Shown here piece by piece: positions 27,917-64,000 of a DNA stretch of 64,000 nt (positions are counted from its first letter, which is position 1; every line of letters starts with the position of its first letter). The stretch comes from a virus (Duplodnaviria > Heunggongvirae > Uroviricota > Caudoviricetes), in IMG/VR virus record IMGVR_UViG_2617270980_000003. One strand, 5' to 3'. The position numbers were made by a program, and so were the translations under genes. The notes beneath the pieces were generated by a model. It saw only the letters and a list, made by a program, of their open reading frames with translations, had not been told where the DNA came from and ran no database searches.

Positions 27917-27943
27917 TCATGGTGGCGAACTCAACAAAACGTA

Positions 27944-33144: not shown

Positions 33145-33156
33145 GAGAGCAAAACA

Positions 33157-33645: not shown

Positions 33646-33660
33646 ACAAGTAAAAATATA

Positions 33661-33688
33661 CCCCTCGGATTGGTTTTCACCGAGGGGA
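33661..33688. terminator. Hairpin between U and the acyltransferase moron
   Basis: CCCCTCGG-12 nt-CCGAGGGG; T-rich run only on the minus-strand side. Confidence 0.35.
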
Positions 33689-33744
33689 GCAACAAGAGAC
33701 CTAGCTCTAATTTTGTTCAATCATGTGTAAATTGTGCAGACTAA

Positions 33745-43011: not shown

Positions 43012-44097
43012 TTACGCGCCCGCGTTCTCGTCAGGCTCTACGGATAACGATGCCGGGGCGGCCTCCGCGAAGGTGATCCCGTCAATGAATGCGCATTTGC
43101 CGTAGTCTTCTACAACGAAGTCATCGTTTGAGGACTGGTAGTTAGCCACGCGGTTATATTGCGGTTCCTCTTTGATGGTTCGACGCAGTGCGCCCAACTG
43201 GTAATACACAGAGAGGTTTTTCAGCGACGTGATCAGCACACAGTCATCAGGCATGTACGGTGCGAAGACCACCGGCAGACCGCCAACTTTTTCACTGGAC
43301 ACAATCAACTGTGCCGCGATCAATTCGCTGTTCGGGTTGGTCTGGCTCAGGGCGTTCAGTTTCGGGAAATAGCTACTGGTCAACAGATCAGAAGACAGGA
43401 TCACAACCAGATCAGGCGCTTTGCGGTGCCACGAATCCAACAGCGTGTTTTTGGCGTCAAAAACAGCCGCGTCCAGGTTGCCGTAAGTACCTTTGGCGAC
43501 GATTTTGTTGTCTTCATCGCGCGCAGTCAGCGTGACTTTGCTGATGATGCGGTGCGGGGCGTCATTGCGGATTTTCTGAAGCCAGCCAACGCCACAATCC
43601 TGCAACAGCGGATTCGTGGCACGGTCAGACACTTCAGCGTATGACGTACCATTAAAACCAATCATGATACGGTCCAGTGCAATCTGGCGGGCGTTTGCCG
43701 CGCTGATCAGTGACTGGAAATTAGGTTGCATAGACCAGGCATCCAGCTGTGAATAGCTGGAGCTAGAGTCGTAGTTGGTTTTACGGCAGCGGTACGTGCT
43801 CGGCTCTTTAGAGTGATTGTCTACCGGGTTGCGGCGGGGGGGGCCGTCGCTGCTGTTGTTGGTACTGGCGATCGGGCCTTTGCTACCAATCAGGATTTTT
43901 TGGCCTTCCTGGGCTTTTACCGGGAATACGTTAATTTTCTTCAGAAAATCATCGCTTTCCATTGAAGCGGCTTCCATACGCTGCTGCACAGCCGGTTCAA
44001 CGCTGAAGGACTTGGCGACATCATCAGAGCGCACGCCATTTAAGTTGGCTTGGCGATCGATATAGCCGTTAAAAAGTACGCGGGTACTGTTTTCCAT
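43012..44097 (-). CDS. N: Major capsid protein (P2 gpN-like)
   Basis: 361 aa (P2 N 357 aa) between O and M. Confidence 0.85.
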   Translation of the reverse strand: MENSTRVLFNGYIDRQANLNGVRSDDVAKSFSVEPAVQQRMEAASMESDDFLKKINVFPVKAQEGQKILIGSKGPIASTNNSSDGPPRRNPVDNHSKEPSTYRCRKTNYDSSSSYSQLDAWSMQPNFQSLISAANARQIALDRIMIGFNGTSYAEVSDRATNPLLQDCGVGWLQKIRNDAPHRIISKVTLTARDEDNKIVAKGTYGNLDAAVFDAKNTLLDSWHRKAPDLVVILSSDLLTSSYFPKLNALSQTNPNSELIAAQLIVSSEKVGGLPVVFAPYMPDDCVLITSLKNLSVYYQLGALRRTIKEEPQYNRVANYQSSNDDFVVEDYGKCAFIDGITFAEAAPASLSVEPDENAGA

Positions 44098-44120
44098 GTG
44101 TTTTATTCTCGCTTGCGTGG

Positions 44121-44960
44121 TTAGTAATCGGCTTGTTCGACGCCGGTGTTACCGCCCTGTGCGGGCTGGCGGCTGAAAGTGCTGGCGTCCTGCTTTGCCA
44201 GTGTGTTTTTCAGGTCGGTCAGTTCGCTGGTCAACTTCTGAATTTCCTTTGCGTCGTCAGCGCGCTGGCTTCTCAGTTCCACCACCTGATCGATAAGGCC
44301 CGCCTGAGACGTGGCGACACCTTCAACCACTTCGCGCACCTGGCTGAATTGCTCACTGTCGGTTTTATGGTTTTTGGTCAGAATTTCCTTCATGCGGCTA
44401 AACCACTTGCTGCCTTCATCACTTCGCTGCTCAGCCAGTTCGATCACTTCCGCTTCAATGGCGTCAGAGAACATCGCGCTTTCGCCCTGCTGTTTATTGA
44501 ATGCCTGCACCTGCTGGCGCTGCTGGGCCGCAAACTTCAGGCGATCAGTACCCAGACTTGCCGGGGTATCAGTCATCGCCATGCCGACAATGTAGGCCTT
44601 ACCGTTCAGTGCAAATTGCGGGTGCAATTCAATACTGGAATAGACTTTCTTACCGGCATCTGTCAGCGCTTTCATTTGCGCTGACGGTTCAATTTCCGCA
44701 TATAACGCAGTGCGCCCTGCTAGCGGACCTTCAGTAATGTCCTCAGCGCTAAGCGCCGTAACATCCCCCATCGCACCAAAATCACTGCCTGGATAAGGCG
44801 AGAGATAATGTTCAACATTCACGCGAGCGCCGTAAACGTCCTGGCTATAGCTCGCGGCAGCATCACGGAGGTGATCTGGTCGAATTTCGCGACCGTCAAC
44901 GGTGGCACCGGAGACGGCAACGCGGAATTTCTTCCGGGTAGGTTTGCTGGTTTCACTCAT
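44121..44960 (-). CDS. O: Capsid scaffolding protein (P2 gpO-like)
   Basis: 279 aa; ...VYSSIELHPQFALNGKAYIVGMAMTDTPASLGTDRL... parallels P2 O as recalled. Confidence 0.85.
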   Translation of the reverse strand: MSETSKPTRKKFRVAVSGATVDGREIRPDHLRDAAASYSQDVYGARVNVEHYLSPYPGSDFGAMGDVTALSAEDITEGPLAGRTALYAEIEPSAQMKALTDAGKKVYSSIELHPQFALNGKAYIVGMAMTDTPASLGTDRLKFAAQQRQQVQAFNKQQGESAMFSDAIEAEVIELAEQRSDEGSKWFSRMKEILTKNHKTDSEQFSQVREVVEGVATSQAGLIDQVVELRSQRADDAKEIQKLTSELTDLKNTLAKQDASTFSRQPAQGGNTGVEQADY

Positions 44961-45033
44961 GTTCTTTCCTGCCGGTTGGTTTCTGTTTTTCCATGATGTC
45001 AGTTGCTAAGTCATTGTCTCAACGCGTTTTAGT

Positions 45034-45051
45034 TGTCAGAGACGGCCCACA
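45034..45051. promoter_or_regulatory. Ogr-type late-promoter activator site (TGT-N12-ACA) between divergent O and P
   Basis: TGTcagagacggcccACA, roughly equidistant (~75-82 bp) from O ATG 44960 and P ATG 45117. Confidence 0.6.
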
Positions 45052-45116
45052 ACCCAAACAGCGGGAACGGCCCACGCGCGCGGGTTAATCTCTCCATCGA
45101 AACGAGAGGACACCGC

Positions 45117-46841
45117 ATGATCCAGGACGCATTTGTAAGACAGAGAGCAAAGCAGCTTTACTGGCAGGGCTACCCGCCAGCAGAGATCGCACGCCTGATG
45201 GGTATCAGTCAGAACACGGTTTATTCGTGGAAAAAGCGCGACGAATGGGACGAAACGCCCGCGATTCAGCGCGTCACACAATCTATTGATGCCCGGTTAT
45301 GCCAAATCGCGATGAAACCAACAAAGACCGGCGGCGATCTGAAGGAAATCGACGCGCTCACGCGCCAGGTGAAGAAGCTGGCAGAAGGCCAACCGGCGCA
45401 ACCCTTCAAGAAAGCGCGCGCGGGCAAGAAGAAAAACCACTTCACCGAAGCGCAGATCGCCGCGCTGCGGGAAAAAATTCAGGACTCTCTGGCCTGGCAT
45501 CAGCAGGGATGGTTTGAACAGCGCCAGCAACGAAACCGCATGATCCTGAAAAGTCGCCAGATTGGCGCAACCTGGTATTTTGCCCGCGAAGCGCTATTAC
45601 AGGCGCTGCGGGATGACGTTAAGCACGGATACCAACGCAACCAGATTTTTCTGTCAGCGTCACGCCGCCAGGCGCACCAGTTCCGGGGATTCATTCAGAA
45701 GATTGCCGAAGAGGTAGACGTAGAACTAAAGGGCGGTGACAAAATTTTGCTGTCTAACGGGGCTGAATTGCATTTTCTCGGCACGTCTGCCGCTACTGCG
45801 CAGAGCTACACCGGCAACCTGTTTTTTGATGAATTTTTCTGGGTAGGCAACTTTGCCAACCTTCGCAAAGTGGCTGGCGCTATGGCAACCCTGAAAGGGC
45901 TTACGCGCACTTACTTTTCAACGCCATCGAGCGAAAGCCACGAAGCCTACCCCTTCTGGACGGGCAAGCGCTGGAATGAGAAGCGGGCCAAGTCCAGCAG
46001 GGTAGACTTCGACACAAGCTGGAAAACGCTAAACAGCGGCCTATTGTGCCCGGACAAAACCTGGCGGCAGATTGTCACCCTAAAGGACGTGATCGACCAC
46101 GGCTGGGAGTTCACCGACCTGGAAGAAATCCAGGACGAAAACACCCCGGACGAATACACCAACCTGTACATGTGTGAGTTCGTCAGAGAAGGCGAGGCTG
46201 TTTTCTCACTCAATCAGCTACTGACGTGTGGCGCGGACGGCTACGACGACTGGCAGGACTGGAAACCCTACGCACCCCGCCCGCTGGGTGATCGTGAAGT
46301 CTGGATAGGCTACGACGCCAACGGCGGCAGCGGCAACGGTGACAGCGGCGCTGTTTCCGTGGTTGCCCCTCCCCTTGTCAGTGGCGGCAAGTTCCGCACG
46401 ATAGAGACGCGCCAGCTACGCGGGATGGAGTTTGAAGAACAGGCCAAAGTGATCGAAGACCTGACGATGAAATATAACGTTCGACACATCGCAATTGACG
46501 GCACCGGCATCGGTGAAGCGGTCTGGCAACTGGTCAAAAAGTTCTTCCCGGCTTCGGTCTGTTTCATAATGTCGCTGTCATCAAAGCGCACCCTGGTACT
46601 GAAAATGCAACAGGTGATCCGCGCGGGGCGCTGGGAGTATGACCGCAGTGAACAGGCGCTAGTGTCAGCATTCAACGCTGTCAGAAAGATCACCACCCCC
46701 GGCGGACAAGTCACTTATGACACCGACCGCGCGCGCGGAGTCAGTCACGGCGACTTAGCCTGGGCCAATATGCTGGCAGTCATCAACGAGCCGCTTGGAC
46801 GCGAGAACGGCGGCGGCGGTAGTTTCGTTATGGAGTTTTAA
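45117..46841 (+). CDS. P: Terminase ATPase (large) subunit (P2 gpP-like); track start 45033 is TTG upstream of the promoter element
   Basis: ATG 45117 preceded by GAGAGGA; 574 aa; divergent from O as in P2. Confidence 0.9.
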   Translation: MIQDAFVRQRAKQLYWQGYPPAEIARLMGISQNTVYSWKKRDEWDETPAIQRVTQSIDARLCQIAMKPTKTGGDLKEIDALTRQVKKLAEGQPAQPFKKARAGKKKNHFTEAQIAALREKIQDSLAWHQQGWFEQRQQRNRMILKSRQIGATWYFAREALLQALRDDVKHGYQRNQIFLSASRRQAHQFRGFIQKIAEEVDVELKGGDKILLSNGAELHFLGTSAATAQSYTGNLFFDEFFWVGNFANLRKVAGAMATLKGLTRTYFSTPSSESHEAYPFWTGKRWNEKRAKSSRVDFDTSWKTLNSGLLCPDKTWRQIVTLKDVIDHGWEFTDLEEIQDENTPDEYTNLYMCEFVREGEAVFSLNQLLTCGADGYDDWQDWKPYAPRPLGDREVWIGYDANGGSGNGDSGAVSVVAPPLVSGGKFRTIETRQLRGMEFEEQAKVIEDLTMKYNVRHIAIDGTGIGEAVWQLVKKFFPASVCFIMSLSSKRTLVLKMQQVIRAGRWEYDRSEQALVSAFNAVRKITTPGGQVTYDTDRARGVSHGDLAWANMLAVINEPLGRENGGGGSFVMEF

Positions 46842-47902
46842 TGAACACAACAACACATGAAAGCGGTATGACCATGCTTACTGACGGCGCGCAACAGGCT
46901 GATATTGGCGAAGCACTAAAGCGCGATCCCGCTCTGAGCGCCTTCACCTTTGATGGGCCATACCAGGTCGCGGACGCTTACGACCTACTCGACAATATGT
47001 ATTGCGCCGACAACGGCAGATATTACGAAACGCCGGTGGACTGGTACGGGCTTGCGCGTTCATTCGGCAAAGCATCCTGGCACCAGTCAGCGCTGTACTT
47101 CAAGCGCAACGCGCTGGCGGGATGCTTTATTCCACACCCGCTACTGTCTCGCCAGACGTTCTCCGCCCTGGCGCTTGACTGGTTTGTGTTTGGCAACTTC
47201 TATCTTGAAGAACGAAAGAACCGGCTAGGCGGGCGGCTACCGCTTCGCCATTCCCCTGCGAAGTACACCCGGCGCGGCACCGACCTGGACACGTACTGGT
47301 TTATCAGGCAGTGGAAAGACGAATGCGCCTTTGAAACCGGCACAGTTTGCCACGTGCTGAACCCCGATATTCACCAGGAAATCTACGGGATGCCGGAATA
47401 TATGGGCACCCTGCTGTCAGCCAGCCTGTCACACTCGGCGGACATGTTTCGCAAAATGTACTATGAGAACGGATCTCATGCTGGCTGCATTCTTTACATC
47501 GGCACATCACAGGTAGATGACGCTGGTGTAAAACAGATACAGCAAACACTGGCAGGAGCCAGGAACAAAGGCGCATTTAAGAACGTAGTGATCCACGCAC
47601 CAGGCGGCGGCAAAGATGGGGTACAACTGATGCCCTTCAGCCAGATATCTGCAAAGGATGAGTTTTTAAATATTAAATCAGCTACGCGTGATGACATCCT
47701 TGCCGCTCACCGCGTACCACCGCAACTGATGGGGGCCATGCCGGACGGCAACGGCTCATTCGGTGATATGGAGAAAGCCGCGCGCGTGTTTGCCATCAAC
47801 GAACTGATGCCAGCAATGGAAGCACTGAAGCACGTCAACGACTGGCTTGGCGAAGAAGTGATCCGCTTTAAACCTTACGCCCTGCTTGAATCCACCAAAT
47901 AA
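46841..47902 (+). CDS. Q: Portal protein (P2 gpQ-like)
   Basis: 353 aa, start overlaps P stop. Confidence 0.9.
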   Translation: MNTTTHESGMTMLTDGAQQADIGEALKRDPALSAFTFDGPYQVADAYDLLDNMYCADNGRYYETPVDWYGLARSFGKASWHQSALYFKRNALAGCFIPHPLLSRQTFSALALDWFVFGNFYLEERKNRLGGRLPLRHSPAKYTRRGTDLDTYWFIRQWKDECAFETGTVCHVLNPDIHQEIYGMPEYMGTLLSASLSHSADMFRKMYYENGSHAGCILYIGTSQVDDAGVKQIQQTLAGARNKGAFKNVVIHAPGGGKDGVQLMPFSQISAKDEFLNIKSATRDDILAAHRVPPQLMGAMPDGNGSFGDMEKAARVFAINELMPAMEALKHVNDWLGEEVIRFKPYALLESTK

Positions 47903-47908
47903 CCACAC

Positions 47909-47927
47909 CGCCGCCAGTCCGGCGGCG
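47909..47927 (+). terminator. Hairpin after Q (weak terminator)
   Basis: CGCCGCC-agtcc-GGCGGCG, followed by only a short CTCTT run. Confidence 0.35.
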
Positions 47928-48059
47928 CTCTTAGCATCACATCAACACACGGCGCGCCAGCGCCATTCTAAGCGCCCCATCATCTAAACACGCCATTACC
48001 CGCACACAACACACAGAACGCAGCAGCGCGCCAGAATTGCGCCAATTTCCCTATATTTG

Positions 48060-48130
48060 AGGCATCCCCCTACCCACCCGCCGCGCGGGCTTTCCCCCCG
48101 TCACCTGCGCGCAACGAACACTCGTGTTTT
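48060..48130. other. Probable P2-type cos region (approximate)
   Basis: GC-rich ...GCGCGGGCTTTCCCCCCGTCACC... between portal gene and cargo, where cos lies in P2; resemblance to P2 cos from memory only. Confidence 0.3.
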
Positions 48131-48241
48131 CGTGCACTTGCAGATCCACCGCCAGCCCCCGCAGATCCTGCCTCGATAATCCCAAAAAGGGGCTGATTTT
48201 ATTGTGCATTTTTGCGCACAATCGTGCATCACTTTACTCTA

Positions 48242-48271
48242 TTGAAAAGTAACCTCATGCCTAGTTATGAT
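48242..48271 (+). promoter_or_regulatory. Putative sigma70 promoter for the KAP NTPase gene
   Basis: TTGAAA-18 nt-TATGAT ~40 bp upstream of ATG 48308; preceded by inverted repeat TTGTGC...GCACAA at 48203-48222. Confidence 0.4.
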
Positions 48272-48307
48272 GCCGTTAAATCATTAAATAAATGAGGAAA
48301 AGAAATT

Positions 48308-49657
48308 ATGCGATTGACCGCTCCTGTTAAAGCGTTCTCAGATGGTTTTAGTACAGCAGATGACATATTTGGACGTAAAAAACTTCATGACATCATCATG
48401 CGGGTAGCAACAAATGCCCCAGATAAAAGTCTTGTACTTGCGCTCAATGATGAATGGGGTAACGGAAAAACCTCATTTGTAAAAATGATGTCATCAGAAA
48501 TAAATAAAAACCATGCTGACAACTTTGACGTTATTTACTTTGACGCTTTTGAAAATGACTATCAATCAGACCCATTTGTAGCCTTAACATCAAAAATTTA
48601 TTCACTCATAAAAAAAGAAGATGGAAAGCTTAAAAACCTCGGGAAAGAGTTATTATCCATTGGTAAAAAACTAGGCGCGTCATTCGCACTTAATGGTGCA
48701 AAATTTGCCGTAAGCACTTTCACAAGTGGATTAGTCTCAGGTAACGCACTGGAGAAAGCAAGTGATGCCATCAGTGACTCTCTCACATCACCTATTGAAG
48801 AGTACATTGAAGAAAAAATAAAAACGAGCGAGAGTGAGTTAGCAACAATTGAGCAATTTAGAGCATTGCTGACCAAGATTCACACTGAGTGTGGGAAAAA
48901 AATAATATTTATAATTGATGAGCTAGACAGGTCGCGACCTGATTTTTCCCTTGACTTGCTAGAGAAAATAAAACATATATTTTCAGTGGAAGGTTTTGTT
49001 TTCTTACTAGTAGTTAACCGTGAGCAGTTTGAAAAAAGTATAGAGTGTAGATATGGGAGCATAAATACAAGATTATATTTAAATAAATTTATTCATTATT
49101 GGTTTACTCTTCCTAAAAAAAGTATGCTCTCAGTAGGCTGCCGAGCAGGCTATGAACGTTCAACGTTAACACAATATCTCCTGTCGTTAGATCAAGGGAA
49201 TGACATACTGATTCGGAATGGTTCTCTCGTAAAAACCCTCGCGTATCTTCTAGAAATGAATAACTGTTCACTGCGAGAGGCTGAGCGTTGCTATTCAACA
49301 TTCGCAATAATGAACGACCCCAGCGAAGTAAATTCCTACCGACATGAAATATTTCATGTTGCCATCGCACTAGTTGCTTTCTTGAAAATATTCAACCAAT
49401 CCTTACTCATGGAAATATTAAACAAAAAACTGACAGAAGATGAGATATTTAAACGATTATCAATTCCTGTAAACCTTGTCGATGTTTCTGAGATTTATTA
49501 TATTGCAATATTGTTAAAATACCACTTAGCCACCGATGAAGAACTACGTTCCTCTGATATGCTCACTGAGTACGCATTCATGGCTGTAATACCTGGACAA
49601 CGAGTCAAATGGTTTGAAATGATGTATGAGAAGATCGAAGGCTTTGATATTAACTGA
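48308..49657 (+). CDS. KAP-family P-loop NTPase (cargo gene in P2 old/tin hotspot)
   Basis: 449 aa; Walker A NDEWGNGKTSF, Walker B IIFIIDELDRSRPD, hydrophobic stretch between them; AT-rich by eye. Confidence 0.75.
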   Translation: MRLTAPVKAFSDGFSTADDIFGRKKLHDIIMRVATNAPDKSLVLALNDEWGNGKTSFVKMMSSEINKNHADNFDVIYFDAFENDYQSDPFVALTSKIYSLIKKEDGKLKNLGKELLSIGKKLGASFALNGAKFAVSTFTSGLVSGNALEKASDAISDSLTSPIEEYIEEKIKTSESELATIEQFRALLTKIHTECGKKIIFIIDELDRSRPDFSLDLLEKIKHIFSVEGFVFLLVVNREQFEKSIECRYGSINTRLYLNKFIHYWFTLPKKSMLSVGCRAGYERSTLTQYLLSLDQGNDILIRNGSLVKTLAYLLEMNNCSLREAERCYSTFAIMNDPSEVNSYRHEIFHVAIALVAFLKIFNQSLLMEILNKKLTEDEIFKRLSIPVNLVDVSEIYYIAILLKYHLATDEELRSSDMLTEYAFMAVIPGQRVKWFEMMYEKIEGFDIN

Positions 49658-49718
49658 TAAGCCATATTATCTTTTATCTCTATTTTGAAGCAATAAAACT
49701 AGAAGTAAACTCTAAAAA

Positions 49719-49740
49719 GCCGCCAATCCCGGCGGTCTTT
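49719..49740 (+). terminator. Rho-independent terminator after the KAP NTPase gene
   Basis: CCGCC-aatccc-GGCGG hairpin followed by TCTTT. Confidence 0.45.
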
Positions 49741-49936
49741 GAAGGGCATTACAATTTCGTGGCGCTCAGTTATACATGGATTCTTAGCAAGGACCAAGCC
49801 GCGACACACTACATTGTAGCTCCCCGCTATGTGATTTGAAGTTGCTGGCAATCAAAAAATGCTCCCTTTAGTACCACTAATTTTGTAGAGTATGGTTAAC
49901 TTTGAAAAGTTGTAATACGTCAACTAAGGAACAGCG

Positions 49937-51088
49937 ATGTCATCAGAAAAAACAATAGAACGTTTCGTTGCAGCAGATGTTAGCGGTGCAATCTGGTTAC
50001 GATTAAAACGATTAATGAGTGCGCAGCTCTGTAAGAAAATAATAGAAAATAATCATCCGTCATTGCAAGAGGATGTATTGATTAAAAAATCCATTGGAAT
50101 GTCCTCCGCAATACGAAGTGCAATCGGATATTGGGAGACTGAAAATGGCGGACTCAATTCAAAAATTTTATCCAGATATTATGCATTATTACAGATAAGC
50201 TTAGCTGAACAAATATCATCAGGGGATCCTAACGACGATTTAAAAAATGTTCAAAAGCATACGGTTTCAGGTCATGGGCTATTCACACAATCTGTTGAAA
50301 ATGAAACATTCCCAGACAATATAAAAATAGGCTGTCTTAAAAGTGGACATTTTTATTCATATGCAAAGCATATAGGAATTGATATCAAACAGTATGCAAC
50401 AGAAAGACGTCCAAAAAAAGATGAAGATTTAGACCCATCACGCACCTATTCTTTAACTGATTTATTAAAACGAATTCCAGAATTAAGACCGCTTTTACAA
50501 GAAACTTTCGGTGAAGATCCACTTTCATTCCAAATTGGACAAGCAAGTAGAAACATGCTCTTAAGATCAAGGAATCAGTCACTCGGTGGCCTATCGCGTC
50601 CTAAACCAGAGTTCTCAGGTTTTACATATGCCGCAATTTATCCCAAAGGTAGCGATGTAACAGCAGAAGAGCTTAATTCTTACAACATTGGAATAAAAAA
50701 CATTGAAATTGAGTCAGAAGAAAACCTCACAAAATATGACCAACCATATTTTGTAGGAGAAGTCCATCACCCTGAAGATGAGCTATGGTGGGATTATGTC
50801 ACGACACACAAATCTGGTTATTGTGGAACGAGTGTAATTGTCCCATTTTGGGGAACTCAAGATCCCTTTGTATTACACTTAGTCGTATTATATACATTAA
50901 GCATTATAGTCAGGTATCTCCCTGACACTTGGTATGAGATTGAGCATGGCAAACTTGATTATATTAATTCCCTTTTGGAAAATTATTTAGCTATTTTTGA
51001 TAGTGTACTGCCTAAACTTGCGGTTGAAAGATTAACGAAAGTTCATTTGGTAGTAACAGCACCCGATAGCATGAATTCCCCTATCTAA
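49937..51088 (+). CDS. Hypothetical protein (second cargo gene in hotspot), no recognisable domain
   Basis: 383-aa ORF, AT-rich, own upstream region; C-terminal hydrophobic segment PFVLHLVVLYTLSIIVRYL. Confidence 0.6.
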   Translation: MSSEKTIERFVAADVSGAIWLRLKRLMSAQLCKKIIENNHPSLQEDVLIKKSIGMSSAIRSAIGYWETENGGLNSKILSRYYALLQISLAEQISSGDPNDDLKNVQKHTVSGHGLFTQSVENETFPDNIKIGCLKSGHFYSYAKHIGIDIKQYATERRPKKDEDLDPSRTYSLTDLLKRIPELRPLLQETFGEDPLSFQIGQASRNMLLRSRNQSLGGLSRPKPEFSGFTYAAIYPKGSDVTAEELNSYNIGIKNIEIESEENLTKYDQPYFVGEVHHPEDELWWDYVTTHKSGYCGTSVIVPFWGTQDPFVLHLVVLYTLSIIVRYLPDTWYEIEHGKLDYINSLLENYLAIFDSVLPKLAVERLTKVHLVVTAPDSMNSPI

Positions 51089-51092
51089 CCAC

Positions 51093-51136
51093 TTTCAGAA
51101 TAACAAGATTTTTTACAACACCTTGTTATTCTGAAA
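51093..51136. repeat. Perfect 15-bp inverted repeat (hairpin) between convergent cargo gene and A-operon end
   Basis: TTTCAGAATAACAAG-14 nt-CTTGTTATTCTGAAA. Confidence 0.5.
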
Positions 51137-51157
51137 CTTATACCTTACAACACATTA

Positions 51158-51469
51158 TCAATCATCATCTTGGTCATCCCCAGTGTCGCGAACGCATGAT
51201 TTTGACTCAAAGTATTTTTTTTCCGCAGCGGTAATCAGGGCTTGGTGTTCAGGGAAATCACGAAACACGTCTACTGCGGGCCATTCAATTTTCGTCACAA
51301 CCAACTTAGGCCTACTTTCCACCTCAGCTTCATCCTGGCTGATATAATGACTTTTTGACTCACGTTCCTCATGCGAAGATTCTCGATAATAGAGCCAATT
51401 TTGATAGTCAGCTTCCCGTTCATAATCATCAAAGTACTTGCCCACGCTTCCCCCCATTAATGAGCGCAA
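51158..51469 (-). CDS. Hypothetical acidic small protein downstream of A (overlaps A 3' end)
   Basis: 103-aa ORF with C-terminal ...DTGDDQDDD; may be spurious. Confidence 0.3.
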   Translation of the reverse strand: MRSLMGGSVGKYFDDYEREADYQNWLYYRESSHEERESKSHYISQDEAEVESRPKLVVTKIEWPAVDVFRDFPEHQALITAAEKKYFESKSCVRDTGDDQDDD

Positions 51470-54008
51470 CCCTTAATCTTTCAAGGAGTACATCATTCTC
51501 CCGCTTCCTTTCCGCTTTAACTCTCTGCTTAACTTCATCGCGGCGCTGTTCGACTACTTCTACCCCCTTCAGCTTCATAGTACAAGCCAAGCAGAGCTTT
51601 TCATCGCCATAGGTTATATCATCCTGATTTAACTCCGCATTACAATCTCTAGCCCTACAGTAAATTGCTTTGGTCTTTTCTACCAGATAGCCATCCTTCA
51701 GATAAACATGTCGATCATCAAAAGAAAGCAAAGCCCCGCGACGAAGGGCATCAATATCAGGCTTGGACTTAATTCCCCAAGAGGAAAGCTGATAGCGAAG
51801 GTGAGCAGTCATTGGTGTGGCCTCCACAACACTGCTCCGCCGGGTTGCTGATTCATCGCGGATAGCCGCCGCCACTTTCATGTAATTTTCAGCGCGCTCC
51901 TGATCTGCGCTATCGCAATCTGAAGCGGCAATAGCATTGGCAAGCGACTCAAACACATCAGCAGGTGATTTTTGCTGTTTTGGTTTGTAATTTCTGATGC
52001 TCTCATTAAGCCGTTTTTTCTGCTCTCGGCTCATTTGACCAATTTCATATTGTTCTGGATCTTCAGGCGGTGGATTTACCGCCCCTTGATTTGTATGTTT
52101 TTTGTACTCAGTACAGTTATTGACACGAGTCCAAGAGGGCGCGGGCGCGCCCTTAAGGTCAAAACCTCGATCGGCGGCGTCGTCTGCTTTTGGCTTCTTT
52201 TTGACAATGCGATAAGAATGGAGGCGGGTTTCAACCGGAGGAACGGTCGATGCTGGCATGACCACCCCTTTAATAACCCTCTGAAACTCGCCGTAACTGC
52301 TCGGCTCATCCCGATATTGATACCAGGCGCGCAACACAAGCCTATTCCGTGTCACGAACGGACCACCCTGCAAGGTGATGTAGTCCTGCCAGTTCCCGGC
52401 ATGGGCGGCGCGGTGTAACTCACCGAAAACCGGACTGATTCGATCTGCCATTTCCTGATTCTTCAGGCGGCGTAACTCACGCCAGACGGACACCGGCGCG
52501 CCACCCAGAAACTGAAACTGACGAATGCCCCAGCATGAAGCCCAGGCAGTAGCGTGTTTTGCTGTCTCCTTCAGTGGGCGTCCGCTTTCGTCGTCGCTTT
52601 CACCATCCAGTGCATAACCGTCGATGTTTTTAGATATGTACTTAACGACATATCCAGTAGCGCTCCCCAAAGCCGGATCTATCGGCTTAAGTTCAAAGCG
52701 GGGCTGTTTGCCATTCTTGCCGGTGAGTTCATCAGCATCTTCACGCGTGGCGTAGTCTTCCATCACTTCCAGCAATTCGCCGGTATGCTCTGGGGCTGTG
52801 AACAGAAGGCCATGCCAATGCGGAGTACCATCATGGTGAGACTCTGCAACACGAAGGCCAAAAACAGAAATCTCACGGCGCGCAAGCTCCGCGCGGATCA
52901 GTTGCCAGACGCGATTAAGGTAGTTTTGTGTCTTGCGGGGGCTGGCTCCGTTCCATTTGCGGTTACGATGCCCGAACGCTGTAAAGGCATGATATTTAGA
53001 CGGCGCGGTCAGGGTGAAGAAACTGCCGGCAAACCCGCTTTCCGTTGCCACCTTCTCAAATCCACCAATGCGCGTCATCAACTCAACACGGCGCTTTTCA
53101 GGATTAGAAATGCTCTTATCAATCTGCTCTATCAGCGAAATGCGCTCACCAGTTACCTGATCTTCAAGTTCAAGGCGGCTCATAATTGCGCGGCTACGCT
53201 TACGGCGTGAATCCCACTGCGTAACGTGGTGTTTGCTGCAATACGGTGAAACATCGCGGCGCACGTCACCATAGGCAATGTGCAAATGCTCGCGCCAGCG
53301 GCGGGCGTACTTGCGCAGGAGGCGTGACCAAAAGCGATCATGAAGGGTTTTTTGTATTGCTGCTGTCGCTTCATCAAGCGCCATCCGGCGCTTCTTCGCC
53401 CAGGGCGGCACTAACCTGAAATACGCAATCAGCCTGGAGCCTTCACGCAGCATGCGTTTGGTGTATTCAGTATCGTTGAACACACTTGCACCCTCGCTCA
53501 CTTCAGCCAAAACAGCATTGGCATAAATGGCTATGTCCTGAGCCAGCAAATCAATATCTTCATCCGTGCAATCCGCCAGATTATTAAAGCGGCGGACAAG
53601 TTCACGCAGATTTTCAAACGAGTGAAACAGTGGGTTTAGTTCAGAGAAAATGATCCACTCATTGTCTTCTGGCACAGCGTATTGTTTCGTGACGTTTCTG
53701 ACGTGTGGAAGCTCGCGCTTAACGATGTCGCGCAACTTCAGTTTTGCGATATGGCGCCCTTTATCCTCGTGAACGGTATTTATGTAAGAGGCAATGCGGC
53801 GGCGAATGAAGATAGGCAACGGCTTGAGGGGATTTTCAACCCAGGCGAAAAACTCCTGCTCTTGACCCAATTCATATAGATCAACAGCGGGAGCCTTATC
53901 AACGAAGATGGCGGCTTTTGGCTCATTCCAGGCGTAAGCATACCGGGCTGGCTCGATAGAGCCTCCCGGCATGTTGGTCATGCTATGAGAGCGGCGAAAT
54001 GAAGACAT
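51429..54008 (-). CDS. A: Rolling-circle replication initiator (P2 gpA-like HUH endonuclease)
   Basis: 859 aa; HUH motif ...HHDGTPHWHGLLF... and Tyr motif ...GYVVKYISKN...; early-operon position. Confidence 0.85.
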   Translation of the reverse strand: MSSFRRSHSMTNMPGGSIEPARYAYAWNEPKAAIFVDKAPAVDLYELGQEQEFFAWVENPLKPLPIFIRRRIASYINTVHEDKGRHIAKLKLRDIVKRELPHVRNVTKQYAVPEDNEWIIFSELNPLFHSFENLRELVRRFNNLADCTDEDIDLLAQDIAIYANAVLAEVSEGASVFNDTEYTKRMLREGSRLIAYFRLVPPWAKKRRMALDEATAAIQKTLHDRFWSRLLRKYARRWREHLHIAYGDVRRDVSPYCSKHHVTQWDSRRKRSRAIMSRLELEDQVTGERISLIEQIDKSISNPEKRRVELMTRIGGFEKVATESGFAGSFFTLTAPSKYHAFTAFGHRNRKWNGASPRKTQNYLNRVWQLIRAELARREISVFGLRVAESHHDGTPHWHGLLFTAPEHTGELLEVMEDYATREDADELTGKNGKQPRFELKPIDPALGSATGYVVKYISKNIDGYALDGESDDESGRPLKETAKHATAWASCWGIRQFQFLGGAPVSVWRELRRLKNQEMADRISPVFGELHRAAHAGNWQDYITLQGGPFVTRNRLVLRAWYQYRDEPSSYGEFQRVIKGVVMPASTVPPVETRLHSYRIVKKKPKADDAADRGFDLKGAPAPSWTRVNNCTEYKKHTNQGAVNPPPEDPEQYEIGQMSREQKKRLNESIRNYKPKQQKSPADVFESLANAIAASDCDSADQERAENYMKVAAAIRDESATRRSSVVEATPMTAHLRYQLSSWGIKSKPDIDALRRGALLSFDDRHVYLKDGYLVEKTKAIYCRARDCNAELNQDDITYGDEKLCLACTMKLKGVEVVEQRRDEVKQRVKAERKRENDVLLERLRVALINGGKRGQVL

Positions 54009-54190: not shown

Positions 54191-54655
54191 TCAGAATGGC
54201 GCTCCATCATCAAAATCGAACGGGGGAGGCGTCGTCTTCCATGTCACCGGTTTACCTGGTTTACATTTCCGCGCGGCCTTGACTGTTGGATAGTTGAGGG
54301 AATGCCGGACAACTTCATCAGTCCACAAATCGTGCGCCTCGAAATCAACGCGCCAGCAACCTTTGCTAATGCAGCGGCGTGAAAAAACGCGCGTAACAAC
54401 GGCGCAAACCGTATGACTTTCAGGCTCGGCTTCAGCGGCAGGATCAAAGCCAAGAAAAACAAGCTCACTACTGTGAGACTTAATCAGGGGATCAAGAACC
54501 GCCCCGAAAGACTTACGAAGCGTCTTTTCAACATCAGGGCCAGCCAAAAGACCTGCATAACCAGCGTGAATTAATGCAGCCTCTTTTGCCTTTTCTAACG
54601 CCGCTATCGCGCCTTGCAGATAGCTCACGTGATCGTTAATGGACGGAGTAATCAT
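54191..54655 (-). CDS. Hypothetical protein (154 aa from ATG 54655) with SSB C-terminus-like tail
   Basis: Start ATG overlaps dam stop (TGATG); C-terminus ...PPPFDFDDGAPF resembles the SSB tip D-F-D-D-D-I-P-F. Confidence 0.5.
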   Translation of the reverse strand: MITPSINDHVSYLQGAIAALEKAKEAALIHAGYAGLLAGPDVEKTLRKSFGAVLDPLIKSHSSELVFLGFDPAAEAEPESHTVCAVVTRVFSRRCISKGCWRVDFEAHDLWTDEVVRHSLNYPTVKAARKCKPGKPVTWKTTPPPFDFDDGAPF

Positions 54656-55647
54656 CAGAAGTCCTCTGCTGCTGTGTATGAATCGCAGATCTCGCAGTTG
54701 CGACAGCAAAAGGTATCGCTTCCAGATTCATAGCCATCGCCAGCAACGGCAGGGCAACAGGTAGCGCAATAACCACGCCCTACTTGCCCGCACTCGTCAC
54801 AGACGAGCAGCGAACCAATCACCTCACCCGCGAGATTGCGTGTTTTTGCTCCCACAGAACGCCGGACTTCGAATGAGTTAAGGGTGAACGGGTAGTAAAT
54901 TTGGCGCGTTTCCGGGGTGTCACTGCCGGAAATAACAGAGGGTATTTTTGCCTGGTTGTAGAGGCGTGAAAGCATCGCAACCAGGGCGCGATGGTCTTCA
55001 TCAGTAAAGGGCTTACCGTATGCAGTAAAATTTGCAGTCTCGCTGGCTGGCAGGTATGGAGGATCGCAATAAACCACGCAGCCTGAATGCCCGATAGATA
55101 GAGGAATTGTTTCTCTGAAATCACCATGCAGGAACATTGCCCCTTTGTCCCAAGCCCTTTTTGCAAAATGCTGAATCTCAGCCACAGGGAAAATTGGCTT
55201 CTTACGAAAACCAAAAGGAACGTTGAATTCATTCTTTAAATTAACACGGTAAACACCGTTGTAGCAGTGACGATTCAAATAAAGAAATAGCGCTGCATAT
55301 TTAACTAATTCATCATTTGTATATTGCTCTCTATGCCCTGCGTACTCGCGATTAAAAATATTGAAGTCATCACGATTTATGTAATATGCATCTTCATTAT
55401 TACCAGTCAAAAACAAGGCGGATGCATAAGTTAAAAGCGCTTCTGTGTTGCGCTTAACCATAGAGAAGAAATTAATTAGGGCTGCATTGCTATCACACAG
55501 AATATAGGTTTTATAGTCTGTATTCAGAAAGACGCTACCACTACCCACAAAAGGCTCAACGAGGCATTCACCCTGCGGCAGAGCATCCAGTACATGAGGC
55601 ATCGCGCGAGACTTGCCGCCAGCCCAGATCAGAGGGGAGTTAATCAC
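54655..55647 (-). CDS. dam: Dam-like DNA N6-adenine methyltransferase with Cys-rich C-terminal extension; start revised to GTG 55647
   Basis: ...LIWAGGKSRAM... and DPPY motif (VVYCDPPYLP); C-terminal ...CDECGQVGRGYCATCC...CCRNCEICD; GTG 55647 preceded by AAGGAG, track ATG 55719 has no SD. Confidence 0.75.
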   Translation of the reverse strand: MINSPLIWAGGKSRAMPHVLDALPQGECLVEPFVGSGSVFLNTDYKTYILCDSNAALINFFSMVKRNTEALLTYASALFLTGNNEDAYYINRDDFNIFNREYAGHREQYTNDELVKYAALFLYLNRHCYNGVYRVNLKNEFNVPFGFRKKPIFPVAEIQHFAKRAWDKGAMFLHGDFRETIPLSIGHSGCVVYCDPPYLPASETANFTAYGKPFTDEDHRALVAMLSRLYNQAKIPSVISGSDTPETRQIYYPFTLNSFEVRRSVGAKTRNLAGEVIGSLLVCDECGQVGRGYCATCCPAVAGDGYESGSDTFCCRNCEICDSYTAAEDF

Positions 55648-55807
55648 TTTTTTGCTCCTTGATTTCTGCGGCCTGTTCTCTGTTGTCGATCCAGTTTTCC
55701 AGGCTGCGATAAATTTCATTGGTGGACAGTTTTTCTTTTTTCAGCAAGGTTAATTTGATACGTAACAATCCAAGCAGGTGCGCGCGTTCATTTGTTTGAA
55801 TTGTCAT
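55640..55807 (-). CDS. Small ORF (55 aa), not in ORF track, translationally coupled to dam
   Basis: ATG 55807 preceded by AGGGGG; MTIQTNERAHLLGLLRIKLTLLKKEKLSTNEIYRSLENWIDNREQAAEIKEQKSD; stop overlaps dam GTG. Confidence 0.45.
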   Translation of the reverse strand: MTIQTNERAHLLGLLRIKLTLLKKEKLSTNEIYRSLENWIDNREQAAEIKEQKSD

Positions 55808-58526: not shown

Positions 58527-58742
58527 TCAAAGTGCCACAACATGAACAGCCGCGGGGCCTTTAGGTCCGTTCTCAATACCAAATTCGACTTCCTGATTCT
58601 CAGTTAACGTTTTGAAATCGTTGCTCTGAATAGCTGAGAAATGGACAAACACATCTTTGCTACCATCTTTCGGCGTGATGAAACCAAAACCTTTTTCAGG
58701 GTTAAACCATTTCACTAAACCAGTCATTTTGTTAGACATCAT
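58527..58742 (-). CDS. cspI: Cold-shock protein, CspA family (CspI-like prophage moron)
   Basis: [38 protein letters not shown]... with RNP1/RNP2 motifs; sits downstream of Rz as cspI does in Qin. Confidence 0.75.
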
Positions 58743-59102
58743 TATTACCTTTTGAAGAAGTTAGCCCTTGGGCAGAATGGTCCGAAAAAAAATATCAGAG
58801 AGAAAAACCAACAAGGAAATCTCAAGAGGTACAAATAATAAAATTATAACAATGACTGCTTCAGATAATTTTGTAACAAACCAGAACACCATTAACGCAT
58901 GATTAACCAACCATAGCAAGGATTACTTTTGTAAAGAAAAACACACGAATGAAACAATAGCTTTATTTATTAATAAAACGTGTCATTCTGTCTAATGACC
59001 TTTTATCTTACCCTTAAGATTTCAAGGATTTTGACTCATGGAAGAGTCCTTTTTATTTAAATTTCACATTCAGCGCTAAAAATAATCCGATTTAATATTA
59101 AT

Positions 59103-60130
<1,028 letters not shown>

Positions 60131-60451
60131 GGATATTTATCAGGATTTATCGGCTTCAAATCCCCGGATATGTTAAATCTTACCTCACCAGTGATGGGCA
60201 CTGGCGGGAGGGGGGTGTCAATCTGATAAACACAAAGGCGACTATGGATTACACAAAACTACCTAAACAAACTTTTGCTGATTTAATCGCACTCAGGCAA
60301 GCAGTCGTAGCTCTAATCAACTTGTTGCCGGAGAAGGAAAAGGAATTAGTTAAAGCGCTTCTTAACAGAACTGCCGCCGATTTTTCATCATATCCACTGA
60401 CAGATGACCTTGCGGACCTTCCTGAATTAATTGCAGCGTCCGCCAATAAGC

Positions 60452-61003
60452 TTACTGAAGAGATTTACCCTCCTCAAAAATCTTCACAAAATTCCTGCGA
60501 GTAACTTCAATGCAATAATCGTAAAACGCCGCAAACTGCTCATCGCGGCGTTTTTTTTCATCTTCAGAAGGAATCAGCACCGACAATTTTTTATTCAGAT
60601 CAGCGACGCTGCCCTCCAGTTTTTCAATGGGCGATTCAATATCATCTTTTTCTGACCGCAATGCCGTCGGTGGCGTCTTCAGAGAACCAGTAATTCTTCC
60701 CGGTAGCTTTCCTTTGTAGGTTATCCACACATTCTGCGCCTCTAAAATTATGGGGCGCTTTTCCGGCGACTGCTCATCCCCTTCACATAACCCGGCAGCA
60801 ACATCCAGGAAGACCTGTCTGATGCTCCTTCTGGCTGCTGCCTCATAAAACTCCAGCGCGGCACCTTCAACACGGTCCAGCGAGATGTCCAGGTCAAAAA
60901 TTTCACCGTCAAAGTGTTTTTTGTCCCGTAAGGCTACAGTTACCGCCACTTTATTCTCAAAATTGCGAACTCCTTTCACAACCAGTTCATAGTCTTGAGT
61001 CAT
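60452..61003 (-). CDS. Hypothetical protein inserted between holin and endolysin
   Basis: ATG 61003 lies 5 nt after the holin stop; occupies the ydfR position of Qin but is longer; track start 61024 is TTG. Confidence 0.45.
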   Translation of the reverse strand: MTQDYELVVKGVRNFENKVAVTVALRDKKHFDGEIFDLDISLDRVEGAALEFYEAAARRSIRQVFLDVAAGLCEGDEQSPEKRPIILEAQNVWITYKGKLPGRITGSLKTPPTALRSEKDDIESPIEKLEGSVADLNKKLSVLIPSEDEKKRRDEQFAAFYDYCIEVTRRNFVKIFEEGKSLQ

Positions 61004-61007
61004 TGGA

Positions 61008-61223
61008 TTACTCTCTTCTCGCAACCTTACGCCTGTCTTCTTTAATCTTGAAATAAAGGTTTGTCAGATACGTCAGCATGCCAAATACCAGACTACCCAA
61101 TACACCTATTGCCGCCCACTGTGAGGGCGTGACTTTATCGAGCAACTGTAAAAACCAGTAGCCAGCACTGCCTGCAGAGGTGCTGTAGGCGATGCCCGTT
61201 GTTAACTTATCCATGGATTTCAT
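61008..61223 (-). CDS. Class II holin / pinholin (S21/EssD-like)
   Basis: From ATG 61223: [71 protein letters not shown] (71 aa), near-identical to phage-21-type holin as recalled. Confidence 0.8.
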
Positions 61224-61413
61224 AGCCTCACCTCCGCAGATAACGGATGGTGTACACGGTTTGGTTCGAAGAAGGAAAGAAGTTACATTAGCGTAAGGCC
61301 CGAACATCTATTCAAAAAGAAAAACGCCAGCAATTATTCTGGCGTAGCTAAAAATATCGTATAATCTTACACTTCAAAAAATAACTTTATAAAATGCCAT
61401 CACATCATATCTT

Positions 61414-62136
61414 CTAAGAAAATCTTGATAAATATTGGTGCGGAGGCACACCAAAATATCCTCTAAAAACACTTACAAAATATGATGCATTGTCATACCC
61501 GCATATTCCCGCCACCTTGCCGACAGTATGGTTACTGTAGATCAATAATCTTTGCGCCATCATCATTCGTTCTTCAAGAATTAATTTACTAAACGATAAT
61601 CCTTCGTCTTTTAATTTTCTTTTTAACAAACTCTCGCTCATATATAATCTTGAAGATATATCACAAAGTCTCCATGACGCTGAGATATCCGAGTGAATAA
61701 TAGCCTTAACTTTACAACCTAAGCTATTAAGACTTCCGAACAAAAAACTTTGCACTATTTTCTCTGAAGATAAGACAGCAAGACATGCAAGTGATATTTG
61801 ATTTCTAACTACATCCACGGTTTTGCTATCACAATTCAAGCATGCAACCAAGTTCCTTAACAATGAAAAATCTTCACATTCTACTATCAAGTATGACGGA
61901 TAAAACCTTCTTACAGAAAAAGGTGAGAGTGTGTAGTTTTTAAAGAAATCATTAACTGTTTTCTCCTCAATATCTACGATCATTAGATGATCTGTATTTG
62001 ACGAAAAAAGATCTTTTAAATTGTATTCAATGAGGACAGCATTTCCTTTTTTAAACAAAATATCTTCTTTACCAATTCGGACACCAAACGAGTTCAACAC
62101 CAAAATGATAGAACATATGTATGGCATATTATCCAC
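61414..62136 (-). CDS. AraC-family transcriptional regulator
   Basis: C-terminal AraC HTH ...GKVAGICGYDNASYFVSVFRGYFGVPPHQY; AT-rich gene with long AT-rich upstream region. Confidence 0.7.
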   Translation of the reverse strand: MDNMPYICSIILVLNSFGVRIGKEDILFKKGNAVLIEYNLKDLFSSNTDHLMIVDIEEKTVNDFFKNYTLSPFSVRRFYPSYLIVECEDFSLLRNLVACLNCDSKTVDVVRNQISLACLAVLSSEKIVQSFLFGSLNSLGCKVKAIIHSDISASWRLCDISSRLYMSESLLKRKLKDEGLSFSKLILEERMMMAQRLLIYSNHTVGKVAGICGYDNASYFVSVFRGYFGVPPHQYLSRFS

Positions 62137-62533
62137 CTGATATCATTGGGGTTACACCAGGTAAGTATAGGTGGAAAATCAATATTCGCCAGTTCAACAA
62201 TAAGGAAAATCTCATTGCATCACAACTATAAAACCATGTGTTTAACTCACAAAAAACAAATCATTAAACTAATCTGTTATATTATAATAGCTGCGTGCAA
62301 TAATAATATTATATGCTCTTTATATTCACTTGAAATATCTTCATATAAAAACAGATTGAATAAAATCTTTTGGGGCTGGTATGTTTACCAACATTAAATT
62401 GCATCTCAATGTTTTCTTTAGCGTGAACAGGATTTTTATAAAAACTGACACTATGAGCATCATAGCGTAGTTTTTACGATTGTAAATATCCTGCATACAG
62501 GAACTCATCACTTTCAGATGATATCGCATACAG

Positions 62534-63493
62534 TTAATTCACCATCAGTCTTAGAGCCAGTTCTTCCGGATAGGGATCGAAGTAATTCTGTGTAAGCAAG
62601 TAATCATTAGGATACTCACCCAGATAATGCTTCAGCAGAGTCAACGGCGCAAGAAGAGGCAATGTGCCAAAGCGATAGTTAAGTATAACCTCGCTCAACT
62701 CTTTACGCTGGCGTGTACTTAAGTAATTACTAAAATACCCCTGTATATGCATCAGCACATTCGTGTGATTTTTACGTGATGCTGGTTTTCTGAGAATCGC
62801 CATCAGATTATCACGATACACCTCAAAGTATGATTCAAGGTCCGCCCACTCGTGTATTGCAGCCACAAATGGTCCCATATCTTTATAGCCTGCCTGGCTA
62901 TGCGCCAACAACTGAAGCTTATAACGACTATGAAAAGCTAATAACTCTCTTCTTGATAATTTCTCCTTGTAAAGGTGATTGAGCTCATGCAAAGCAAAAA
63001 CTCTTTCAATAAAATTCTCACGAAGCACTGGATCATGTAATCGCCCATCCTCTTCAACCGGTAGCCAGGAAAACTTTTCCATCAAAGTGCTCGTAAATAG
63101 TCCCACTCCATCTTTACGACCTCGATTACCATTTTCATCATAGACACGCACGCGCTCCATGCCACAGCTGGGAGATTTAGCACAAACCACAAACCCCGAT
63201 ACATCCTTTAATTTGTCCATATAAGAACGACTAAACTCTGTCATTCTCTCTGTCACATCCTCATTCTGGTCGTGGCTGAAACACATCCGTATATTTCCTT
63301 GCTTCGAGCGCACAAGTCGTAGAGCAGGACGCGGAACTGGCAGCCCTATAGCCATTTCCGGACATACTGGTCTGAATGTTACCCATTCCACTAATTTGTC
63401 CATTAAAAAGTCATCTCTTTTGTGACCACCATCAAAACGAACAGCAGAACCGCCCAAACAACCGCTGATCCCAATCACAGGTTTTTTTATCAT
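62534..63493 (-). CDS. DUF523/DUF1722-family protein (YbgA-like)
   Basis: 319 aa; N-terminal Cys-containing ...GISGCLGGSAVRFDGGHK...CPEM...; family assignment from memory. Confidence 0.5.
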   Translation of the reverse strand: MIKKPVIGISGCLGGSAVRFDGGHKRDDFLMDKLVEWVTFRPVCPEMAIGLPVPRPALRLVRSKQGNIRMCFSHDQNEDVTERMTEFSRSYMDKLKDVSGFVVCAKSPSCGMERVRVYDENGNRGRKDGVGLFTSTLMEKFSWLPVEEDGRLHDPVLRENFIERVFALHELNHLYKEKLSRRELLAFHSRYKLQLLAHSQAGYKDMGPFVAAIHEWADLESYFEVYRDNLMAILRKPASRKNHTNVLMHIQGYFSNYLSTRQRKELSEVILNYRFGTLPLLAPLTLLKHYLGEYPNDYLLTQNYFDPYPEELALRLMVN

Positions 63494-63685
63494 TTCCTCC
63501 CCCTTGACTAATTCATTAACACATAAACTTTGTAGTGCACGGACTAAATTGCCTTTCTGGCTTCATCACTGACAATTTTTCTGTTATTGACTATTCCTAA
63601 TATAGTAGGAAAGTTCTTTAAGTGATCGGTCGTACTCATCTATCTTTCATACTTACTCTCAACTATCAAAAGTACAGGATTTATT

Positions 63686-64000
63686 ATGAAGTTATGGCCT
63701 GTGTTGACTGGCATTGCACTCTCTTTCACTCTTATAGCATGTAAGGCCCCGACACCACCTAAAGGTGTGCAGCCGATTACAAATTTTGACGCCAACCGCT
63801 ACCTCGGAAAATGGTATGAAATAGCTCGCCTCGAGAACTGGTTCGAACGTGGTCTGGAACAGGTCAGCGCTACTTATGAAAAACGGAACGACGGAGGGAT
63901 TCGCGTACTTAACCGTGGATACGATCCAACGAAAAACAAATGGAGCGAGAGCGAAGGTAAAGCATACTTTACTGGAGATACTAAAACTGCAGCGTTGAAA
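63686..64000 (+). CDS. blc: Outer-membrane lipocalin Blc-like, 5' part (continues beyond window); not in ORF track
   Basis: ATG 63686: MKLWPVLTGIALSFTLIACKAPTPPKGV...FDANRYLGKWYEIARLENWFERGLEQVSATY..., lipobox plus lipocalin motif, similar to E. coli Blc as recalled. Confidence 0.7.
   Translation, partial: MKLWPVLTGIALSFTLIACKAPTPPKGVQPITNFDANRYLGKWYEIARLENWFERGLEQVSATYEKRNDGGIRVLNRGYDPTKNKWSESEGKAYFTGDTKTAALK

Follow-up and report, generated by a model that had tools for sequence, protein, structure and literature searches.

Two independent cargo genes, coding for a KAP-family NTPase and a YaaC-family protein, stacked in the cos-proximal hotspot of a P2-like prophage as candidate anti-phage modules

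We analysed a stretch of 64,000 nucleotides (the window) from the IMG/VR virus record IMGVR_UViG_2617270980_000003, which carries a P2-like prophage, and looked at the cargo located between the portal gene and the gpA operon of this prophage (positions 47,903 to 51,157). Two genes are found there, one coding for a KAP-family P-loop NTPase and the other for a protein of the YaaC family, and they are very probably two independent modules and not one system. Each has close relatives in other elements that lack its neighbour. Our overall reading, to which we give a probability of about 0.55, is that they are two stacked, autonomous single-gene candidates for defence, acting in the ways proposed below.

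The cargo island and its two genes

The host of the P2-like prophage is Escherichia coli; the flank 58600-63900 is 99.9% identical to E. coli chromosomes. Between the portal gene gpQ, with the adjoining cos, and the gpA operon lies an AT-rich island of about 2.9 kb that holds two open reading frames (ORFs) encoding 449 and 383 amino acids (aa). A preliminary description of this DNA had reported both ORFs, their AT-richness and their location in the slot where P2 carries old and tin, and all of this is borne out. The GC content is 0.34-0.39 across 48250-51000 (about 0.36 over approximately 48230-51000) compared with 0.53-0.57 (about 0.55) in the flanks. The interval between the terminase and portal genes (45033-47902) and gpA is the documented cos-proximal hotspot of P2, where old and tin are found in P2 itself and where 1,650 gene arrangements have been described in 18,150 E. 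coli loci (Rousset et al. 2022, PMC9122126). The window cargo shows what is expected of this hotspot, namely the position between gpQ/cos and gpA, an atypical composition and a content that varies among related prophages. It thus shares with the old/tin cargo of P2 both the slot and the AT-rich, variable character, but its genes are unrelated by sequence to Old (an ATPase-TOPRIM protein) and to Tin.

On the left, the cargo begins near position 48229, where the GC content falls from 0.55 to 0.36 and the identity to the prophage backbone ends. Past the first 326 nucleotides (nt) of the interval, which are backbone, no match to the cargo DNA was found in 5,426 complete E. coli genomes or 50,697 phage records. 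With blastn in distant mode, KAP-related DNA was detected in only 2 genomes and YaaC DNA in none.

The two genes are found apart from each other

The preliminary description had treated the two genes as a pair that might constitute one locus-level system. Comparison of the hotspot between prophages did not support this, since the two genes are adjacent only in the lineage of the window. The protein identical to the window YaaC invariably comes in this prophage arrangement, together with KAP. Elsewhere, KAP genes occupy the same portal-gpA slot without YaaC, at identities of 84%, 72% (Klebsiella), 65% (Salmonella) and 48% (Serratia, beside HicAB). Conversely, YaaC is found without KAP at 88% identity in the P2 slot of another locus (L069), behind a DUF2806 gene; at 84% (Serratia) and 78% (Klebsiella) directly after the alpha-primase gene of a P4-like satellite, which is the P4 hotspot; and at 80% in Citrobacter, behind Abi_alpha (PADLOC PDC-S47, 8e-36) at three genomic sites. 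As the nearest KAP relative and the nearest YaaC relative each stand alone, a double dissociation, a two-gene KAP+YaaC defence system was rejected. We also ran the KAP hidden Markov model (HMM) against all ORFs of the YaaC loci. An adjacent KAP gene was present only in the window lineage (L001-5 and L022) and in none of the 43 species-level YaaC loci, a single weak match lying 8 kb away. The suggestion that the genes are separate units therefore stands in the sense that they are, in evolutionary terms, fully separable.

The extent of the shared DNA was also examined. For each gene, the DNA in common with other contexts runs from the ribosome-binding site (RBS) to the stop codon only, with two exceptions. 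The hairpin that follows the KAP gene has a counterpart in the corresponding position downstream of KAP in a prophage with KAP alone (L070; 22-nt match, 86%), and 58 nt upstream of the YaaC gene are shared with the other P2-borne copy, in L069. In P4 and other contexts the YaaC homology starts at 49923, and the nucleotide homology of the KAP gene to KAP-only prophages fades at 49119-49399. Within the spacer between the two genes of the window, only these two elements match other loci. Because it recurs after KAP in L070, the hairpin belongs to the KAP module.

L069 shows how hotspot cargo gets stacked. Between its DUF2806 and YaaC genes (1340-1870 of that locus) lies a frameshifted, degenerate remnant of the gpA C-terminus, corresponding to aa 677-854 of another P2-like gpA (E 2.5e-31), that is, a recombination scar. 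A gpA 3' remnant of this kind was sought in the KAP-YaaC spacer of the window and was not found there.

More distant YaaC homologs, at 57-25% identity, occur in Halomonas, Bradyrhizobium, Priestia, Bacteroidota, Melainabacteria, Acidobacteria and others. Their neighbours include CHAT, AbiEii, RT-trypsin, HEPN_Apea, Type III restriction-modification (RM), DRT, AIPR and SLATT genes as well as resolvases; the commonest family around the YaaC loci accounts for at most 3 of 136 flanking ORFs. Serine recombinases are present within 10 kb of YaaC in 8 of about 43 genome loci, and a long form of YaaC is a passenger directly after a Tn3-family resolvase on conjugative IncF plasmids.

Some of these loci show further particulars. 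In three Citrobacter-type contigs (L072, L073 and L074), Abi_alpha and YaaC form a two-gene cassette with identical spacing (5034-7152 in L072); that of L072 resides within an integrase island adjoining smpB, which also encodes a dCTP-deaminase defence gene. The long form on the IncF plasmids is a protein of 506 aa with an N-terminal extension of about 135 aa, encoded 38 nt downstream of the resolvase (L075, 4962-7077; L076, 1790-7077). In L076 its gene is inside a Tn3-family transposon and in L075 some 2.3 kb separate it from blaNDM-1; the hosts of these plasmids are E. coli, Citrobacter, Klebsiella and Enterobacter. On a viral contig (L024, 1686-2830) a YaaC gene split by a frameshift adjoins a RES-domain toxin gene, and another homolog (L041) is carried by a 3.9-kb contig binned as Lokiarchaeota, for which binning contamination is possible.

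The KAP NTPase gene

The first protein had been recognised as a KAP NTPase from its motifs, and the HMM searches confirmed this. Pfam KAP_NTPase (PF07693) matches aa 24-277 with an E-value of 6.7e-38 (131 bits for a cut-off of 20), and the PADLOC model PDC-S20 (PDLC04959) matches with 1.2e-74, aa 18-403 aligning to positions 18-390 of the 464 of the profile. The protein also matches PHROG 8614. Both Walker motifs are intact. The region between them had been described as a hydrophobic insert, and a membrane-spanning insert was considered and rejected: the maximum 19-residue hydropathy is 0.94, and the structure model shows a soluble helical hairpin there, whose tip (aa 131-163) has low model confidence. 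The protein therefore lacks the transmembrane (TM) helices that are typical of the KAP family. This does not exclude it from the family, because PifA is also devoid of TM helices. The hypervariable C-terminal region (aa 331-449) is a candidate specificity or sensor domain. No effector domain was recognised by Pfam search or in the structure model, and no sequence relative with a solved structure was found; the closest solved fold to the model is that of RdrA from RADAR.

Neither cargo gene matches a named, validated defence system in PADLOC and NCBIfam searches, in agreement with the preliminary description. The statement that the locus is uncharacterised holds for the YaaC gene and only in part for the KAP gene, which is already catalogued. 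Indeed, the latter is an ortholog (69% identity over 398 aa) of the single-gene system #92 'KAP_NTPase', which has 36 occurrences in Table S5B of Rousset et al. 2022 (PMC9122126); in the hotspot table of the same study KAP_NTPase is listed 69 times, with changing partners. PDC-S20 is one of 145 candidates obtained by 'guilt-by-embedding' (Payne et al., bioRxiv 10.1101/2024.01.29.577857), and the name 'PDC-S20' was not found in the literature searched. The 145 candidates were predicted from genes lying inside BREX, DISARM or Type I RM systems, whereas the window KAP is the cargo of a prophage hotspot. As the KAP gene is an already-listed candidate that still awaits testing, the locus adds little on the KAP side.

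We then compared the protein with KAP-type proteins of known systems. PifA, from the F plasmid, is a KAP protein without TM helices that causes abortive infection of T7. The window protein resembles it as a TM-less KAP NTPase with similarity in the N-terminal NTPase part (PADLOC PifA, 1.8e-19), but the match is limited to positions 16-256 of the 720 of the profile, the window protein has 449 aa and its C-terminus is unrelated. In the absence of full-length similarity, it was not retained as a PifA ortholog. RdrA chains have about 790 aa and work with the RdrB deaminase. RdrA (PDB 8fnt and 8fnu) and the window KAP share 15% sequence identity, no RdrB-like gene is present and PADLOC gave no RADAR hit, so that membership of RADAR was rejected. 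The Qat system was likewise set aside, as the NCBIfam QatA model scores 53 bits for an equivalog cut-off of 600 and no Qat partner genes are present in the locus. In Enterococcus, KAP NTPases with uncharacterised C-terminal regions provide defence that depends on Walker B (RADS preprint, PMC12632615). The window KAP is similarly a single protein made of a KAP NTPase and a C-terminal region of unknown function; however, the Enterococcus protein (EF_KAP) has two N-terminal TM helices and a C-terminal region of 322 aa, while the window protein has no TM helix and a variable tail of about 120-170 aa. The likeness considered here is one of architecture.

The YaaC-family gene

The 383-aa protein had been described as having no recognisable domain. 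In fact, the Pfam search assigns it to the YaaC family (PF14175) with an E-value of 3.7e-20 and 73 bits for a cut-off of 27, aa 48-366 aligning to positions 29-307 of the 307 of the profile, and the NCBI label for the identical protein is 'YaaC family protein'. It has no match in PADLOC, NCBIfam or PHROG. The structure model is confident and shows a HEPN-like bundle of helices, which an alpha/beta insertion of about 215 residues divides. No relative with a solved structure was found by sequence, and Foldseek against the PDB gave no match.

In a set of 225 homologs, which takes in a distant subfamily of about 500 aa, the residues K51, Y81-Y82, T109, G112-H113-G114, G137, P181-E182 and S293 are invariant, as are Y319, S322, R326-Y327, P329 and W332. 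A canonical HEPN motif, [RK]107-x5-H113, was considered and had to be given up when the distant subfamily was added: H113 never changes, but position 107 does, R reaching no more than 47% among close homologs and K 19% among distant homologs. As for R326, no conserved H is present within 4-6 residues of it. Since the Rx4-6H motif is absent, we describe the protein as having a HEPN-like scaffold and do not file it as a HEPN nuclease. It was compared with AF0298 (2hsb), the toxins 5yep and 7ae2 and the HEPN domain of AbiA (8oz7), and it differs from these HEPN proteins by the lack of the motif and by its interrupted bundle, with no link found at the sequence level. The cluster of conserved residues is probably enzymatic and non-canonical. 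The N-terminal extensions of the subfamily of about 500 aa, or of longer fusions, contain no Pfam domain.

The literature searched held nothing relevant on the YaaC family. The gene was not found in the supplementary tables of Rousset et al. that were searched as text, one of them in part only (PMC9122126), the census of HEPN proteins (PMC3710099) mentions neither YaaC nor KAP, and the main texts of DefensePredictor and RADS (PMC12632615) do not mention YaaC.

Transcription signals and edges of the cargo

The two genes had been credited with promoters and terminators of their own, and this was not confirmed. One sigma-70-like site precedes the KAP gene (Table 1). Over the region, however, 9 promoter-like sites were found for 10.7 expected in shuffled sequences, which is not above chance; none was found in the 200 nt before the YaaC gene, and no conserved promoter was found to travel with either gene. 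The hairpin reported after the KAP gene is real, as judged from its folding energy, but its T-tract makes it terminator-like on the minus strand only. Just past the YaaC stop codon, where the YaaC gene and the backbone ORF converge, a perfect inverted repeat marks the right border of the cargo. It may serve as a bidirectional terminator, or could be a boundary at which cargo recombines.

Table 1. Features of the cargo interval and of the adjoining prophage genes (dG, folding free energy)
Feature	Position	Strand	Basis or remark
Capsid and scaffold genes	43012-44960	-	prophage gene order
Terminase	45033-46841	+	prophage gene order
Portal gpQ	46841-47902	+	prophage gene order
GC-rich non-coding cos-proximal prophage backbone	47903-48228		query nt 1-326 are 92.7% identical to another E. 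coli chromosome
Sigma-70-like promoter match TTGAAA-18-TATGAT	48242-48271	+	consensus match; the KAP start codon follows 37 nt downstream
KAP-family P-loop NTPase, 449 aa, PADLOC PDC-S20 type	48308-49657	+	profile matches
Walker A WGNGKTS, aa 50-56	48455-48475	+	W50, G51, G53 and K54 invariant in 46 homologs
Helical-hairpin insert between Walker A and B, aa 107-195	48626-48892	+	predicted secondary structure and model confidence (pLDDT)
Walker B IIDELDR, aa 202-208	48911-48931	+	D204, E205, D207 and R208 invariant in 46 homologs
Hypervariable C-terminal helical region, aa 331-449	49298-49654	+	column entropy 2.2-2.65 (NTPase core, 0.5-1.2)
GC-rich hairpin CCGCC-6 nt-GGCGG with adjoining A-run and T-rich tail	49714-49740		dG -19.1 kcal/mol, z -3.9
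YaaC upstream stretch, 58 nt including the RBS AAGGA	49879-49936	+	78% identity to L069 over 49879-49960
YaaC-family (PF14175) protein, 383 aa	49937-51088	+	profile match
15-bp perfect inverted repeat, 14-nt loop	51093-51136		dG -17.1 (+) and -21.5 (-) kcal/mol; z -8.9 and -8.1
103-aa acidic ORF at the end of the gpA operon, backbone and not cargo	51158-51469	-	counterpart at the same position in L069; identical in L001-5
gpA	51429-54008	-	prophage gene order

Proposed roles and alternatives

We propose that two autonomous single-gene cargo modules were stacked by recombination in the cos-proximal hotspot. The KAP protein, for which a defensive role is rather probable, would be a soluble, stand-alone, phage-sensing switch driven by NTP, with an RdrA/ORC-like ATPase core, comparable in its action to PifA and other defence proteins of the KAP family. 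Its variable C-terminus may recognise a phage product or component, and ATP binding or hydrolysis would then drive oligomerisation and lead to growth arrest, as the analogy to PifA and to the KAP proteins of Enterococcus suggests. For the YaaC-like protein the chances of a defensive role are nearly even. It would be a stand-alone enzyme-type defence or abortive-infection effector protecting the lysogen against other phages; with its HEPN-like scaffold it would most plausibly act on RNA, possibly as a non-canonical RNase, and it would be activated by infection or tolerated until infection occurs. A broader and more tentative proposal, which we hold to fall somewhat short of even odds, is that the YaaC (PF14175) subfamily is an unrecognised and widespread single-gene anti-phage family. 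It would combine a degenerate HEPN scaffold with a new catalytic constellation (K51, Y81-Y82, the GHG at H113, E182, S293 and R326-Y327) and would owe its spread to P2 phages, P4 satellites, Tn3 transposons and integrative islands.

Several points weigh against a defensive reading of the locus. What the comparisons show is the identity of the two genes, their independence and mobility, and the types of genomic surroundings in which they occur; their anti-phage activity is inferred from this context, and both mechanisms are proposals. The YaaC that gave its name to the family, in Bacillus subtilis, is a chromosomal gene, so PF14175 as a whole is not necessarily defensive. The evidence from the YaaC neighbourhoods is qualitative, being made of counts per family. 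On the KAP side, the PDC candidates of Payne et al. are untested, and KAP is not mentioned in the main text of Rousset et al. (PMC9122126), in which the cloned systems are described.

Could the two proteins nevertheless work together, with KAP as sensor or NTPase switch and the YaaC-like protein as effector, as in RdrA-RdrB or QatA-QatBCD? The genes are adjacent on the same strand, 279 nt apart, without a clear promoter before the second one, the KAP protein has no recognisable effector domain, and the KAP-type ATPases RdrA and QatA do act with partners. Such a cooperative system is, however, very unlikely: co-occurrence is confined to one prophage lineage, the nearest relatives (84% for KAP, 88% for YaaC) each do without the other gene, the hairpin between the genes is part of the KAP module, and the 36 listings of system #92 are of a single-gene arrangement. 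A weightier alternative, although we regard it as unlikely too, is that one or both genes are accessory cargo with no role in defence, ensuring addiction to the element or its stabilisation, intervening in the competition between P2 and P4, or acting as a host-fitness 'moron'. When Rousset et al. cloned hotspot systems, only about one in three showed defence (PMC9122126), YaaC homologs are carried by Tn3 transposons and conjugative plasmids beside resistance genes, the same gene is found in P2 helpers and P4 satellites, and the prophage itself has a non-defence moron (the acyltransferase gene described below). On the other hand, bona fide defence genes (dCTP deaminase, DRT, Type III RM, AbiEii, PDC-S47) are found repeatedly as neighbours, validated defence members exist in the KAP family, and the distribution is rare, patchy and fast-diverging, as for defence genes. 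Finally, the YaaC-like protein might be a canonical HEPN ribonuclease toxin of the abortive-infection type (Abi2, RnlA or ApeA classes); the helical bundle recalls this fold, but with the Rx4-6H motif absent we consider this improbable, less so than a cooperative system and more so than a role outside defence.

Two independent modules, each a candidate for defence, thus remains the reading that we favour. It is proven that the P2 and P4 hotspots harbour defence systems, and variable defence cargo is, as a kind, familiar from the P2 hotspot. What is new is that YaaC, a functionally blank Pfam family, behaves as cargo that moves autonomously and is carried by P2, P4, Tn3 and defence islands, with a range from Proteobacteria to Bacteroidota and Melainabacteria and with dCTP deaminase, DRT, RM and Abi genes at its side. 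If the defensive role is true, it would be the first function for the YaaC family, and that of a compact single-gene system with a non-canonical active site. As the two genes are not a pair, separate cloning is called for.

Other features of the prophage

The 103-aa ORF that adjoins the cargo on its right shares 71-74% identity with its positional counterpart in L069, and is identical in L001-5; it has no family match in Pfam, PADLOC, NCBIfam or PHROG. A second AT-rich cargo gene (33745-34782, + strand) is placed between gpU and the tail-fibre assembly and tail-fibre genes. It encodes a 345-aa acyltransferase (Pfam Acyl_transf_3, 7.1e-19) without a match in a PADLOC search, probably a moron that modifies lipopolysaccharide or O-antigen. 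The gene order of P2 is colinear, unlike the arrangement seen here, in which gpT/gpU (30136-33645) are on the + strand and gpD (26669-27916) and the tail-fibre genes (34779-36499) on the - strand; an inversion of the tail block 26669-36499 is possible. In the early operon of the prophage, a gene at 54655-55719 (- strand) codes for a Dam-like MethyltransfD12 protein (PADLOC orphan methyltransferase model, 4.7e-77) with a Cys-rich C-terminal tail, and the 5' part of this gene is locally low in GC.

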